Shown: positions 12,001 through 24,000, numbered from the stretch's first letter. The stretch is DNA of 64,000 nt from Actinomycetota bacterium (GCA_040880745.1 JBBDHX010000042.1:4362-68361), one strand, 5' to 3'. Numbers: made by a program.

Positions 12001-15000
12001 CGGCCCGCCTCGGCGGGATGTTGTCGAGGACCGTGGTCGAGTCGACGTTCGGTTGGTAGCTCTCCGGCCGCGGATCGGACGCCTTCCGGGCGTCGACCTC
12101 GATGACGTCGAACTTCCGAAAGCGCCGATCGAACGGCATGTCTCTGAACGGGACGGGGAACAGCCGGATCCACCGAGGCTGCTCCATGTCGATCCCGGCC
12201 ACGCACACCGCCTCGCCGTGCTTCTTCCCGATCGCGGGGTAGGCCTTGACCGTGACGAGGATCTTCAGGGTCTCGTTCCTCACGGCACCGAGTATGGGCG
12301 ACGGCCGTGACGGCGAAGCCCACCGCGCGGTGCTGGTCTCGTCGTCCCCGGGCGGTTGGCCCCCGGGGACGACGATGGACATCAGCTGAGCACGTCGGCG
12401 GCGAGGTCGGCGAGGTAGGCGAACAGCTCGTCCGTGTCTTGCCCGTAGCCGCGCGCGACCTTGCCGACGTCGTGCACGGACTCGACGAGGGTCGGTGGCT
12501 CGTCGCCATCCACGGGATCGACGACGAACGGGAAGTCCTGCGCGAGACCGAAGTCGTTCGCCGGCATCTTGCTCATCGCGAAGATGGCTACCTTCTCGCC
12601 TCCGACGATGGGCGCCCAACAACCCTCCTCCCCATTCCTCATGGTGATGCTCAACAGGCCCCAGCTCTCGTCGCTGATATTGGCCTGGATGGTGGTGGTC
12701 CGGCGCCCCTCGCGCCGCACCTTGACCTTCATGCCTGCTTCTGGGCTGAACATGGTGTCCTCCTTGGAACACGTTGCCCGCCCGACGATCGGACGGCAAC
12801 TGACTGGCGGAGTGGTCTCTCGCACCTGGGGGAGCGGGGACGCGCGCCGCAGCTGGATCAACTGATGGCCTCGGGCCCAAGTAGTCAGGTTGCAGGCGTT
12901 AGCCCCACCACGAACGTTTGTAGCACCGAGAAGGAAGTCGAGTGCGGCGAACTCCAACTATTTCCAGGAGCGCCAGGGGGCCTCGACGGGGTCCCAGGTC
13001 TCTTGGTTCGCCGAGGGCGACGGATCGGGATGGGCACCGCTACCAAGGCCGAGGGCCAGGGCACATCATCGTCAGGCAAGCGTTAGACGAGGGCGAACCT
13101 ACGGCAGCCCACGCAGGATCATCGACCAAGGGCGTCTGCCACCTGATCGGCGATCTCAGCAGTAGGCACGTACATCGCACCGCCGTTCTCGGGAGCGCCG
13201 TAGTCGCGGATCCACGCGACCGCGCCGTCCACGTTCACCAAGACGAACGTATGACCGGGCTCTCCGCTTGGCATCGCCCATCGCATGACGCCGTACGCGG
13301 TCGCCACCCCGTTCCCGTCGTCCGTGAGCATGGGGGTGCTCACTCCGAGCGCCTTCCCCTCGGCCGTCCACGCGGACGCGGGATCCGGTGAGATGCTGAG
13401 CACCCCGACGTCGAGATCCTGGAAGGCTCTGTCCTCCTGCAGGTCGACCACCTGCTGCATGCAAGGCGTTCACCCGGGACCCATGCTGAAGTACAGGAGC
13501 ATCGGCCGCTCGCCCAGCTTCTCGGTGAGCGAGACGCTGCTGCCTCCGGCCTCGGGGAGCGTGAAGTCGGGCGCGTCGTCGCCCACCGACAACTCCTGGC
13601 TGGGCGTCGACGTCGCAGGAGCGCCGGTCGAGCACGACGTAACGAGCAGCGCCAGCCCACCGAGGAAGACGAGCGCTGTCCACGCCGGGCGGTTCCTCAA
13701 GACCACGCTCTCCTGGTAGAAGTACTACGTACAGTAGTGAGCCTACCGCGGGACGGCAAAGGAGAGGATCTTGGGAGCGTTCGCCCTTGCCCTGGTGGCG
13801 GGCGTGATCTCGTTCTCCTCGCCGTGCTGCCTTCCGTTGATGCCTGGCTACGTGTCATACGTCTCGGGCGTCGCGGGGGTGTCGGCGACAGCGACCGCCG
13901 TCCGACACAGGACCTTGGGGGCGGCAGCGCTGTTCGTCCTCGGGTTTGCGCTGGTCTTCACCGCGATGGGGGCGAGCGCGTCCGCCCTGGGCTCACAGAT
14001 CCTTCAGCACCGGATCGGCCTCACCCAGATCGCCGGCGTCGTCGTGCTCGCCTTCGGACTCACGATGCTCGGCGTGGTGCGTGCCCCGTTCCTCTACCGC
14101 GAGAGGCGGTTGGCGCTCCATCGGATCCAGCCTGGGCCGGCCGGCGCCCTCCCGCTGGGGGCAGCGTTCGCGGTCGGGTGGACCCCGTGCATCGGCCCGG
14201 TGCTCGCGGCGATCCTCGCCGTCGCCGCGTCCACGTCGACCCCGGCGCGGGGTGCGGCCCTTCTGTTCACGTACTCGCTGGGTCTGGGGATCCCGTTCCT
14301 CCTGCTCGCCGCCGGCGTGGCTCGCGGCGGTCGCTTCCTGGAGTGGCTCCGGCGACGCGCGAGGGCGATCGAGATCGTCGGAGGCTCGCTCCTGGTCGCG
14401 ATGGGCGTGCTGATGGTGACCGGCGCCTGGGTGTCGCTCTTCACGCCGATCCTCCGCCTGTTCTCCGAGACCGGGTGGCCTCCGCTATGACGGGCGCCGG
14501 AGCTACCCGCGGCCCTGACGCTCGGGCGGTGCGATCGGCGGCGCAGCGTCGCCGCCTGGCGCTCGTCCTCGTGATCACGGGGTCGGTGCTCGTCATCGAG
14601 GTGATTGGAGGCGTCGCCTCGGGAAGCCTCGCGCTGCTGGCCGATGCCGGGCACATGCTCACCGACGTCGCCGGGATCGGCTTGGCGCTCCTCGCGATGC
14701 GGTTCGCGCTGAGGCGGGCGGACGAGGAGCGCACCTTCGGCTACTACCGACTTGAGATCCTGGCCGCCGTGATCAACGGCGTACTCCTGTTCGGGATCGC
14801 CGCCTACGTCCTGATCGAGGCCGTTCGCCGGCTCAGCGATCCCCCAGAGATCCAGAGTGGGCTGATGCTCGCGGTGGCGCTCCTGGGCGCGGCCGCGAAC
14901 GCTGTCTCGCTCAAGATCCTCCACCCGGCGCAGGGGGAGAGCCTGAACGTGCGGGGGGCCTACCTCGAGGTCCTGGGTGACCTGCTGGGGTCTATCGCCG

Positions 15001-21000: not shown

Positions 21001-24000
21001 CGGGGTCAGGTATGTCGGCGCCGCCCTGTGCGCGGGAGTCGACCTGCACGGAGGGAACGTCGTCACCGATCACCGCGTTGTCCGACGCTGGCGCCGTCTC
21101 ACCGACTCCAGGCACCCTCGGGGCGTCGAGCACCTCGAACGTCGTCGTTCCCTGTACGACGCCGTAGTCCTCGACCCGTGCTGCCACCTGCACGGCCCAT
21201 GTCCCGGCTGTTCCGAACTCGACGCCCTCGAGCTCGTACACCCCGCGCACGGTGGCGGGAGAGATCGCCTGTGGATCTGCGGAGTAGTCGCCCACCTTCG
21301 TCCCCGGAACCGGCAGGTACGTTCCTGTGACGGACTCGCTCGCCGCACCAGCCGGCTGACCGTCTGCCCCGATCCCTTGGAACCGCATCTGCACGGTCCC
21401 GTAGGCGACGAGCCGGTTGTCCGGCAGGATCAGTCCGACGAGGAACCGGTTCGATTCGTTCGCCAGCAGTTCGTAGTTGACGAGGCTCACCTGCACCGGC
21501 AGGTTCTCTCCCTGCGACGTGGGCGCAGCCTGAGGCGAGGGTGCCGTCGTCGTCGTGTCGCCCGAACATGCGGAGAGCGCGATGGCGAGCCCGATGCTCA
21601 ACGCGGTCATCCTCGTGCTCAACTGAGTACCTCCCGGGCCGCCGCGCTCGCCACGACGCTCCGTAGTAGCCTAGCGGACCCATGGACGACCGTGCCGAGA
21701 CGACGTCTGCGCACGAGGGTACCGCTCGGGCGCCTGCGGGGGACTCTACGATGAAGCGTGTCGTCATCTGGTTGCTGATGCTCGGAGGCGCGATGCTGGT
21801 CATCGGTCTGGCATGGGCGCAGCTGCGGTCATCGAGCGATTCTGCCTTCGGGGCGATCGCAGGGCCGGCCGAGATCGTGGCGATCGATGCGCCCGCCCCG
21901 GATTTCGAACTCCCCCTGTTGGACGGCTCGGGTGCCCTCCGGCTGTCCTCGCTACGGGGGAGCGTCGTCGTGCTCAACTTCTGGGCGAGTTGGTGTGGTC
22001 CGTGCCGTCAGGAGGCGCCCGGCCTCAAGACGATGTCGGAGCGGTACGCCGACCGGAACGTGCGCTTCGTGGGTGTCGACTACGTCGACAACGTGGCCGC
22101 TGGTCAGACGTTCATGCGCGAGTTCCGCCTCATCTATCCCAGCGTGAGCGACATGGCGGGCAGCCTGGCGGACGACTTCGCGCTGCTCGGCCTTCCGGCG
22201 ACGTTCGTGATCGACGAGGAGGGCACGATGCGCTACCGGTTCGCCGGGTACGTGACCGAGCCGGTCCTCGAACAGGCGCTCGACGACGTCCTGGGAGTTC
22301 CGCAGCCACCCTCGCAAGGCGGGTCCGCGTGACGGAGCACGATGGCCCTCGCGGGCCGTCGATCGACGTCACCGAGGGTCGGAGCGGGCTCTGGCACTGG
22401 AGCTGCCCAGGGTGCGGATCGGCGGGGAGGCGTTGGTACCGGACGCCATACGAGGCGCACGTCGCAGGGGCCGATCATCTGGATGGGGCGTGTGGCGGCA
22501 AGCCAGCGGTATCGTCGTCGAGGTCACACGGCACCCTGCGGCGGACCCTCCGCGCTCGCGTGCGCCCGGAGGGTTGATGGCGAAGCTGAAGAGGGAACTC
22601 GGGCCGCTTGAGATGGCGGTCATGGATTTCGTCTGGGATGCGGACCCCCGCGAGGTTTCCGTCCGCGACGTTCTGGAGTCGAGTGCGGGACGGCAGCATG
22701 CCTACACCACGGTCATGACGATCCTCGATCGTCTCTGGCGGAAGAGGTACCTCTCCCGGCGCCAGGTGGGCCGGGCCTACCTCTATCGTTCGCGCATCGG
22801 TCGAGAGCAGCACGTGCAGGCACTGATCGAGGATGTCCTCGCGGCATCTTCCGATCGGCACAGCGCGATGCTCGGGTTCGTCCGTGGGGTCGGTGAGGCC
22901 GATCTCGAAGGCCTCCGGGCCGCGATCCGCCAGGTCGAGCGCGAGCGTCGGCGCGATCGATGAGGGTCATCCTCGCCCTCGGACTGATCTGCGTCGTCGC
23001 TGCGATGCCGGCCACGGCCGGCCGATGGTTCGTCCGCGTCGGCAGCACATGGGGGACGATCGTTCTCAGCGCTGCATCGCTCGCGGCGATGGCACTCGGG
23101 ACGGTGGTGGTCCTGGCGGCGGCCGTTGGGGCCCCATCCTCTGGCTGGCGGGACGTGCCGGCCTTCGTCGGTCGCTGCCTCGAGGCGGCGGGTGAGATAT
23201 GGGATCAGCCGCCGCAGCACTGGGCGCGGATCCTCGCGGCTGTCGTCCTCTCCCTCATCGTCGTGCGGTTGGTATACGTACTCGTGCGGACCGTGCTCGA
23301 CGCCCGTCGCGAGGCGAGCCGGGCGTTCTCCGTGGCGACGAACGTGAAGGCGGAGAGGTGGGGAGAGCTCTGGGTGGTCCCGAGCGACAGGACGTTCGCG
23401 TTCGCGGTTGGGCTCCGGCGACGGGCGATCGTCGTGAGCGAGGGTCTCCTCGAGGCGCTCGATGAGCGGCGCGTCGCCGCCGTCATGGCGCACGAGCGCG
23501 ACCACCTCGCGCGGTGGCATCTGCTGACGCTCCTGTTCGCCAAAGGCATCGCGCGGGCGTTCCCGTTCATCCCGCCAGTGCGCGAAGCGGCCGACCAACT
23601 CGAGCTCGGGCTCGAGATGCACGCTGACGGAGCCGCAGTCGCGGCAACCGGGGATGGCGTGCTTGTGGCTCAGGCGCTCGCCGAGGTGGCGCGCCGCGAG
23701 GTCGGGGTCGCGCCGACGGCCGGCATCGCAGGCGGTGCCGTGGGTGTTCGGATCGGGCACCTGACCTCGATCGACCCACGCGTGCCCGGGGTGAAGTGCG
23801 CGATCCTACTCGTGGTGCCGCTGCTCGTCCTCGCCAGCCTCGTCGTCATGTTGCCCGTGAGCGCACGCACGCTGGTCGGGGCGGAACGTGCCGTCGCCCT
23901 CCACGATGCGTGCCACCTGCCGCATCCGCTGGGCAACGAGGTCGTGTGAACGCTGGGCGGTGTTCAACAGCCCGCCGAGCGGCTCGCCGTCGCCGGACCT

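Follow-up and report, generated by a model that had tools for sequence, protein, structure and literature searches.

Which genes would a BlaI-type repressor control, and what would its partner protease respond to, when that protease has no sensor domain? The question is raised by a gene cluster at positions 13119–23949 of a 64-kb stretch of DNA (JBBDHX010000042.1:4362-68361; called the window below, with positions counted from its first nucleotide). The window lies on contig C42 of the genome of an uncultured Actinomycetota bacterium (2.35 Mb, 69% G+C, 52 contigs, 88% complete). An initial annotation noted three matching dyads in the cluster and proposed that a BlaI/CopY-like repressor encoded there binds them, controlling five transcription units for envelope thiol-redox chemistry, metal handling and cell-wall remodelling. 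The boxes, their placement and conservation, the single repressor gene, the gene families and the invariant motifs of the protease were computed here. The best overall explanation is probably a BlaI-operated regulon of five units with relief by the protease. The local BlaI regulon, with its thiol, metal and wall content, is supported by the boxes, the single repressor and the related loci, but the analogy with the copper-responsive CopY falls, as the protein has no cysteine.

Three dyad boxes in the window

A search of the window with the pattern WACKAC-N5-GTMGTR returned exactly three sites, at 13723, 20627 and 21652. These are the dyads of the initial annotation; all three are intergenic and lie 13–38 nucleotides (nt) from start codons. 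The pattern was fitted post hoc to these same sites, a caveat on the window statistics (0.07 sites expected from dinucleotide shuffles of the window, with 0 of 100 shuffles giving three). Independent support for the boxes comes from related loci and from mycobacteria.

Operator 1 (13723–13739; TACTAC-GTACA-GTAGTG, TACTACGTACAGTAGTG) is common to the divergent selenoredoxin gene and ccdA-CDF-CDF operon, with 16 nt to the GTG start of the former (13706) and 31 nt to the TTG start of ccdA (13771). Operator 2 (20627–20643; AACGAC-GCGGT-GTCGTA, AACGACGCGGTGTCGTA) heads a six-gene minus-strand operon (M23/DUF3105/DUF305) and is flanked by the stop of a lipoprotein gene (20645–21622) and the start of the M23 gene (20588). 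Operator 3 (21652–21668; CACGAC-GCTCC-GTAGTA, TACTACGGAGCGTCGTG when read on the minus strand) sits amid the divergent starts of the lipoprotein gene (TTG, 21622, minus strand) and of a TlpA-like gene (ATG, 21682, plus strand), and is common to the former and to the tlpA-orf82-blaI-blaR operon. Stop and start codons overlap throughout that operon (GTGA between the TlpA-like gene and orf82, TGATG between orf82 and blaI, ATGA between blaI and the protease gene), indicating one translationally coupled unit of four genes behind operator 3, and a separate blaI promoter is therefore not needed. Operator 3, heading the operon that contains blaI, is the predicted autoregulatory site. The overlapping codons, by tying blaI to this operator, justify the view that the sites cover every unit including the repressor's own, and the three boxes can, on their positions, account for all five transcription units.

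The boxes are rare in the genome. Their core, ACKAC-N5-GTMGT, has nine copies, three of them within this 8 kb, and TAC(G/T)AC-N5-GT(A/C)GTA with at most one mismatch has 15 sites genome-wide. When the genome was ranked with a weight matrix trained solely on sites from related loci, the window sites took ranks 1, 5 and 9, operator 2 being the top-scoring site. Six other sites complete the top nine: the two best are inside clpP and an rlmN-like gene, one is inside a low-GC secreted-protein gene, and the last three fall within open frames that look coding by a crude codon-position GC test. The strong matches inside the three named genes were rejected as chance, intragenic occurrences. A near-consensus box at the end of the window (63998–64014; TACGACAACACGTCGGA; C42:68359), inside a low-GC gene for a secreted protein of 229 residues, was judged a chance match.

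A terminator search that covered the three spacers and the region as a whole gave a single terminator-like hairpin, which falls inside the M23 gene, and an Rfam scan of 12500–24500 gave zero matches.

The repressor and the distribution of its probable box

The repressor gene (22577–22963, plus strand) encodes a winged-helix protein of 128 residues that belongs to the BlaI/MecI/CopY family (PF03965, 72.8 bits against a cut-off of 22.6 bits); no other PF03965 gene occurs in the genome. The best match in the PDB is 2G9W, the BlaI of Mycobacterium tuberculosis (E 1e-15); 1SD4 also matched, and Staphylococcus aureus BlaI did so far more weakly. The recognition helix is near-identical to that of M. 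tuberculosis BlaI (AYTTVM..L.RL.(R/K)K). At the staphylococcal N-F cleavage site only the Phe aligns, the pair being G-F here and H-F in M. tuberculosis.

Mycobacterial blaI loci carry the same kind of box. Eighty such loci, fetched with the 2G9W sequence and totalling 487 kb, were searched for the consensus with at most one mismatch, and 79 have it, nearly all as TACGAC-N5-GTAGTA with a variable spacer and, in the loci listed, 57–66 bp upstream of blaI; no second match of this quality occurs in the 487 kb. The consensus TAC[GT]AC-N5-GT[AC]GTA, which the initial annotation gave for mycobacterial BlaI, is borne out by this footprint, and the box type can be taken as a property of this branch of BlaI proteins. 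Judged by their letters, the window boxes, including the one before the repressor's own operon, are of this mycobacterial operator type with one mismatch each. Since the genome has a single PF03965 gene and the box type matches, the BlaI-family repressor of the cluster is the likely binder of all three boxes, in keeping with the prediction of one regulator.

Relatives of the repressor (46–71% identity, and one partial fragment at 96%) all come from uncultured Actinomycetota and adjoin the same protease, the gene of which overlaps blaI in every relative locus examined. In six relative loci with gene calls, 26 boxes with at most one mismatch were found and all 26 are intergenic, against 15% of intergenic DNA (binomial P ~4e-22); up to seven boxes occur per locus, compared with three here. 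Their targets are plastocyanin-like cupredoxin genes (four boxes), DsbD_TM/CcdA genes (four), CopA-type ATPases (three), NlpC/P60 genes (four, plus two for an SLH-NlpC/P60 gene), LGT (two) and M23 (two), and further boxes precede genes for redoxins, YkuD, a CDF, a two-component system and blaI itself. The combination of thiol-redox, metal and cell-wall genes proposed for the window thus recurs among the targets of its relatives.

Motif conservation in orthologous clusters had been suggested as a check on the regulon, and besides the intergenic boxes it is seen in a syntenic locus, L102 (protease 82% identical), where sites 2 and 3 are kept. Site 2 has one spacer change there, and site 3 is identical while the adjoining spacer carries indels. 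In locus L010, a weaker box with two mismatches stands at the position of site 2, the selenoredoxin gene starts within ~20 nt of a weaker box with two mismatches, and a CDF gene has a box upstream of it. A further box, TACGAC-N5-GTAGGA, was seen ~30–60 nt past the protease stop in five loci (L009 at 11452, L097 at 11032, L098 at 11021, L002 at 3682 and L003 at 1813) and has no counterpart in the window; in L009 and L098 a cupredoxin gene is next downstream of it.

These distributions bear on whether the three dyads could be chance matches or the sites of another regulator. The post hoc pattern and the single consensus mismatch in each site would allow such a reading, but it has to contend with the shuffles, with the rarity of the boxes in the genome and their clustering, with the wholly intergenic boxes of the relatives and the mycobacterial footprint, and with the retention of sites within otherwise diverged spacers, and is very improbable. 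The boxes are very probably BlaI operators of a local regulon, to judge from sequence comparison.

Genes of the five transcription units

Gene families were assigned with Pfam and NCBIfam, and the products listed in the initial annotation (CcdA, TlpA, a selenoprotein, two CDF exporters, DUF305, DUF3105 and an M23 peptidase) were all recovered. The selenoredoxin gene (13119–13706, minus strand) encodes a secreted lipoprotein of the AhpC/TSA family with a U-x-x-C active site, in which an in-frame TGA (13470–13472) gives U-T-P-C. The selenoprotein reading holds: the TGA is at the same codon in three orthologues, with Cys at that place in a fourth homologue, and tRNA-Sec, SelA and SelB are encoded in the genome (contig C11). 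The TGA is followed by a hairpin, GCAGGT-GGTCG-ACCTGC (13439–13472, minus strand), of unremarkable folding energy taken alone, which is identical in a distant orthologue (locus L099, at 16482). Locus L099, from an HR12-like genome (BPGM01000001.1), has its BlaI/BlaR genes beside DsbD_TM, a redoxin, an ArsR-CDF-cupredoxin group and an AhpC/TSA gene split by TGA.

Across operator 1, the plus-strand operon begins with a CcdA/DsbD-type membrane thiol electron transporter (13771–14490; PF02683, 62 bits). Its stop is overlapped by the start of a CDF metal exporter with a ZT_dimer domain (14487–15404, plus strand; PF01545 at 150 bits, PF16916), the stop of which is in turn overlapped by the start of a second, short CDF-type transporter (15401–16027, plus strand; PF01545, TIGR01297). 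This operon and the minus-strand M23 operon converge at 16027–16037, with 9 nt between their stops and no terminator-like hairpin at that place.

The six genes behind operator 2, all on the minus strand, start with an M23 peptidoglycan endopeptidase that has a PcsB-like coiled coil (19467–20588; PF01551, PF24568). It is followed by a membrane protein without family assignment (18885–19436; syntenic in L102), a DUF3105 protein (18208–18822; PF11303, 147 bits) and a DUF305 protein (17537–18211; PF03713, 157 bits); the copper-binding CopM of Synechocystis also belongs to DUF305 (PMC4335983). The last two genes encode a membrane-anchored protein like DUF6130/DUF4399 (16970–17527; weak Pfam matches, with a DUF6130 gene at the same place in L010) and a membrane protein of no clear family (16037–16924; weak DUF6069 match, syntenic in L102).

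On the minus strand between operators 2 and 3 lies the lipoprotein gene (20645–21622), the product of which has YtkA-like and thioredoxin-like domains (weak PF13115 and PF13098 matches) and an LSAC lipobox, with orthologues in L010 and L102. The operon on the other side of operator 3 opens with a membrane-anchored TlpA/ResA/DsbE-like thiol-disulfide oxidoreductase (21682–22332, plus strand; Pfam/NCBIfam) that carries a WCGPC motif.

The next gene, orf82 (22329–22577, plus strand), is a newly recognised open reading frame (ORF) of 82 codons with the motif WHWSCPGCG, coupled to its neighbours on both sides. The 244-nt gap before blaI had been considered as non-coding DNA that might hold a second promoter, and this was rejected because its alignment with L102 and L103 shows conservation of the coding type and its GTG overlaps the upstream stop; in these loci (80–90% identical) the changes are mostly synonymous and the single indel is of 3 nt. 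The product has no family match; a word search gave no homologue, and a tblastn search with the gap gave no distant one. The protein may be accessory to the switch. Pfam searches of the window proteins found no beta-lactamase or penicillin-binding protein (PBP) gene in the cluster, and neither blaC-type beta-lactamase nor ATP-synthase genes in the boxed units. Beyond the protease gene the window has small minus-strand ORFs and a gene for a Kelch-repeat protein.

The protease and the candidate signal

The last gene of the blaI operon (22960–23949, plus strand) encodes a BlaR-like M48/M56 membrane zinc protease of 329 residues, which scores above the cut-off on PF01435 (42.5 bits) and below it on PF05569 (20.3 bits against 31 bits). 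Its HERDH and EMHAD motifs (HExxH and ExxxD) are invariant in 28 of 28 relatives, the full-length clusters obtained when 1.84 billion representative proteins were searched with a profile; a word-based homologue search with the protease had given three matches only. A zinc protease of this kind, adjacent to and apparently co-transcribed with the repressor gene, has the architecture of a BlaI/BlaR-type switch. The resemblance to BlaI-BlaR1 of S. aureus and Bacillus licheniformis and to MecI-MecR1 extends to the repressor fold family, the zinc-protease family with its two motifs and the adjacent, co-transcribed genes. In BlaR1 an extracellular penicillin-binding sensor domain follows the fourth transmembrane segment (TM4). 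No penicillin-binding (transpeptidase-like) sensor domain was found in the 329 residues here, where four hydrophobic segments are followed by only ~16 residues after TM4. These systems differ also in their targets, which are beta-lactamase or PBP2a genes, and in the firmicute box, TACA/TGTA with a short spacer (PMC7253601).

Charge bias and hydropathy predict that loop 2 (residues 57–88) and the C-terminal tail of the protease are outside the cell, which matches the topology of BlaR1 with its sensor domain after TM4. Both carry candidate ligand motifs, Cys73...His87-Trp88 in loop 2 and His315-x2-Cys318-His319-x-Pro321-His322 in the tail. Cys73, Pro84, Trp88, His315 and Cys318 are present in 28/28 clusters, His319 and His322 in 27/28, and His87 and Pro321 in 26/28, a conservation equal to that of the catalytic residues. 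The profile search delimits a discrete clade of ~30 protease clusters, the H-x2-C-H-x-P-H tail being found in 26 of the 31 top matches and in three of the next 121. Neighbouring clades of sensor-less BlaR-like proteins (P0105-P0123) have another cysteine motif at the C-terminus (...C-P-L...), and a tail cysteine may be a wider theme among such proteases.

The repressor itself offers no comparable site. CopY has a C-terminal CxCx4CxC (or CxC) metal site and no partner protease. The CopY/TcrY proteins of Firmicutes share the PF03965 DNA-binding domain with the present repressor, which unlike them lacks CxCx4CxC, or any cysteine in its 128 residues, and has a partner protease. The family name and a weak match to TIGR02698 (CopY_TcrY) are what would favour copper sensing by the repressor, with Cu(I) displacing Zn at a C-terminal cysteine cluster and the protease irrelevant. 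The score is 38.1 bits against a cut-off of 121.95 bits, and the overlap of the protease gene with blaI in every relative also speaks against an irrelevant protease; together with the missing cysteines the score excludes sensing of the CopY type, an explanation that is refuted at the sequence level and has practically no chance of being right. With it goes the copper-response analogy of the initial annotation. Metal or redox sensing would have to occur in the protease. With a penicillin-binding domain missing from the protease and a metal site missing from the repressor, the Cys/His segments of the protease are the likeliest readers of the signal.

The regulon would then work as follows. A repressor dimer on TAC(G/T)AC-N5-GT(A/C)GTA boxes, which would overlap core promoters or very short leaders, would keep five units off: the secreted selenocysteine redoxin; ccdA with the two CDF exporters; the six genes for M23, a membrane protein, DUF3105, DUF305, the DUF6130-like protein and a second membrane protein; the YtkA/thioredoxin-like lipoprotein; and, by autoregulation, the TlpA-like gene, orf82, blaI and blaR. 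Derepression would come from cleavage of the repressor by the co-transcribed protease, as in BlaR1/BlaI, M. tuberculosis BlaR/BlaI and PetP/PetR. The likeliest signal would be either a thiol-binding metal, copper or another, or oxidised loop-2 and tail thiols, in the cell envelope, and the output would be repair and protection of envelope thiols, removal of metal and adjustment of wall hydrolases. Binding, repression, proteolysis and signal are all steps that we infer. Copper or thiol stress, read by the Cys/His motifs, is a serious candidate for the signal, although at a little under an even chance.

Two known systems combine features seen here. BlaI-BlaR of M. tuberculosis and M. abscessus (Rv1846c-Rv1845c) has the closest solved repressor relative and the same box type, and both systems would be autoregulated; mycobacterial BlaR is also of similar length (312–325 residues in the loci read) and without a penicillin-binding domain. 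It is without the loop-2 Cys/His insertion and the C-terminal H-x2-C-H-L-P-H tail, however, both motifs being absent from the mycobacterial BlaR sequences examined. The mycobacterial loci searched gave one box per locus, against three here and up to seven in the relatives. The mycobacterial regulon, to which two studies cited in PMC13492132 (Sala et al. 2009; Bonefont et al. 2024) assign blaC, ATP synthase and genes of energy metabolism, is unlike the boxed units in composition.

The closest working precedent, by analogy, is PetR/PetP of Synechocystis sp. PCC 6803. There both PetP and copper are required for degradation of PetR, GAC-N5-GTC forms the core of the box, plastocyanin is the target under repression, and a pair of Met residues in loop 2 has been proposed to bind the metal in PetP; four genes are governed, and PetR also activates transcription (bioRxiv 10.1101/2020.07.31.226407). 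The likeness lies in a BlaI-type repressor without the CopY Cys motif, a sensor-less M48/M56 protease, the core box and a metal site proposed in loop 2. In relatives of the present clade four boxes precede Copper-bind genes; the window has no cupredoxin gene. The differences are that loop 2 of the window protease has no Met, the candidate ligands being Cys and His in loop 2 and the tail, and that the five units comprise ~17 genes, among them those for thiol-redox and wall enzymes, against the four of PetRP. The present system would share its repressor and operator type with M. tuberculosis BlaI and its logic with PetRP.

Several observations weigh against the proposed regulon or its signal. 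The window sites all depart from the strict consensus, by one mismatch each. No sigma-70-type promoter was detected in scans of the three spacers and the whole region, so that the overlap of operators with promoters is deduced from distances alone. The more distant locus L099 (57% BlaI identity) has no TACKAC-N5-GTMGTA box or other shared palindrome, and the operator there, if any, differs. The AlphaFold model of the protease (predicted local distance difference test score 74) is of moderate quality; the membrane part is helical, and loop 2 and the tail are the very segments that are modelled poorly. Foldseek matched it weakly to M48 peptidases and to BlaR1 of S. aureus (8EXQ/8EXS), with a best E of 3.6e-3. 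In this genome the regulon has no cupredoxin or CopA, and the only HMA P-type ATPase has no box, so that the copper link rests on DUF305, on the relatives and on the PetRP analogy; being indirect here, it leaves Zn or pure thiol oxidation as live alternatives. To judge from the CDF exporters, the metal would rather be Zn, Co or Mn. Finally, the signals of M. tuberculosis BlaIR and Clostridioides difficile CenIR, the best-studied sensor-less systems, are still unknown (PMC13492132). A search of the genome, which is 88% complete, gave no CsoR gene.

Zinc (or Co/Cd) as the metal of the same switch, with a regulon devoted mainly to CDF-based efflux, is improbable. It would suit the two CDF exporters of the ccdA operon, the boxed CDF gene of L010 and His-rich sites, which bind Zn too, yet cupredoxins and CopA are the recurrent targets in the relatives, DUF305 is the CopM family, and PetP, the only characterised metal-responsive sensor-less BlaR, requires copper.

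A different signal altogether would be damage to the wall or membrane, such as a peptidoglycan fragment, a defect of the lipid II cycle or a beta-lactam-like insult, acting through the same BlaI operators with the Cys/His motifs purely structural. Wall enzymes are indeed conserved targets (M23 here; NlpC/P60, YkuD and LGT in relatives), BacA lies within the blaI operon of L010, and the operator is of the M. tuberculosis type, a wall signal having been proposed for M. tuberculosis BlaIR and C. difficile CenIR. CenI-CenR is a non-canonical BlaIR pair that governs envelope genes including a peptidoglycan hydrolase (PMC13492132). The control of envelope genes by such a pair is a point of likeness, but the system is a firmicute one, its protease has a long disordered C-terminal region, and its regulon is not reported to include redox or metal genes (PMC13492132). 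With a protease that lacks a penicillin-binding domain, a cluster that lacks beta-lactamase and PBP genes, a majority of targets that are thiol-redox or metal proteins, and invariant outward-facing Cys and His that are typical metal or redox ligands, wall damage is an unlikely signal.

For copper or thiol stress as the signal, a specific arrangement can be put forward tentatively, in which a minimal sensor has replaced the penicillin sensor. It would consist of one invariant Cys with His residues in loop 2 and one invariant Cys with three His in the ~16-residue tail. Under envelope stress, Cu (or Zn) or a disulfide would bridge loop 2 and tail and switch on the cytoplasmic protease. The induced pathway of CcdA, the TlpA-like protein and the selenocysteine redoxin would in turn reset the sensor by reducing or stripping it, closing a feedback loop for thiol and metal homeostasis.

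Non-canonical BlaIR pairs are now seen as the majority, with mostly unknown signals (PMC13492132), and copper for cyanobacterial PetP is the one sensor-less case found with a defined signal. In the literature searched, no account was found of an actinobacterial BlaIR regulon of this composition or of the Cys/His motifs. The output of the regulon would be coherent, joining envelope thiol reduction, including a selenoprotein, with metal handling and peptidoglycan hydrolases, and through the cluster wall remodelling would be linked with copper or thiol stress. Such a link fits the inhibition of LD-transpeptidases by copper and the wrong disulfides that form under copper catalysis. Together with its relatives the cluster offers an operator that is computationally well supported and a short list of invariant, outward-facing Cys and His residues, and what sensor-less BlaR proteases sense is thereby made directly testable for one clade. 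If the minimal-sensor arrangement is true, one clade among the many sensor-less BlaR proteins would have a defined signal and ligand set.

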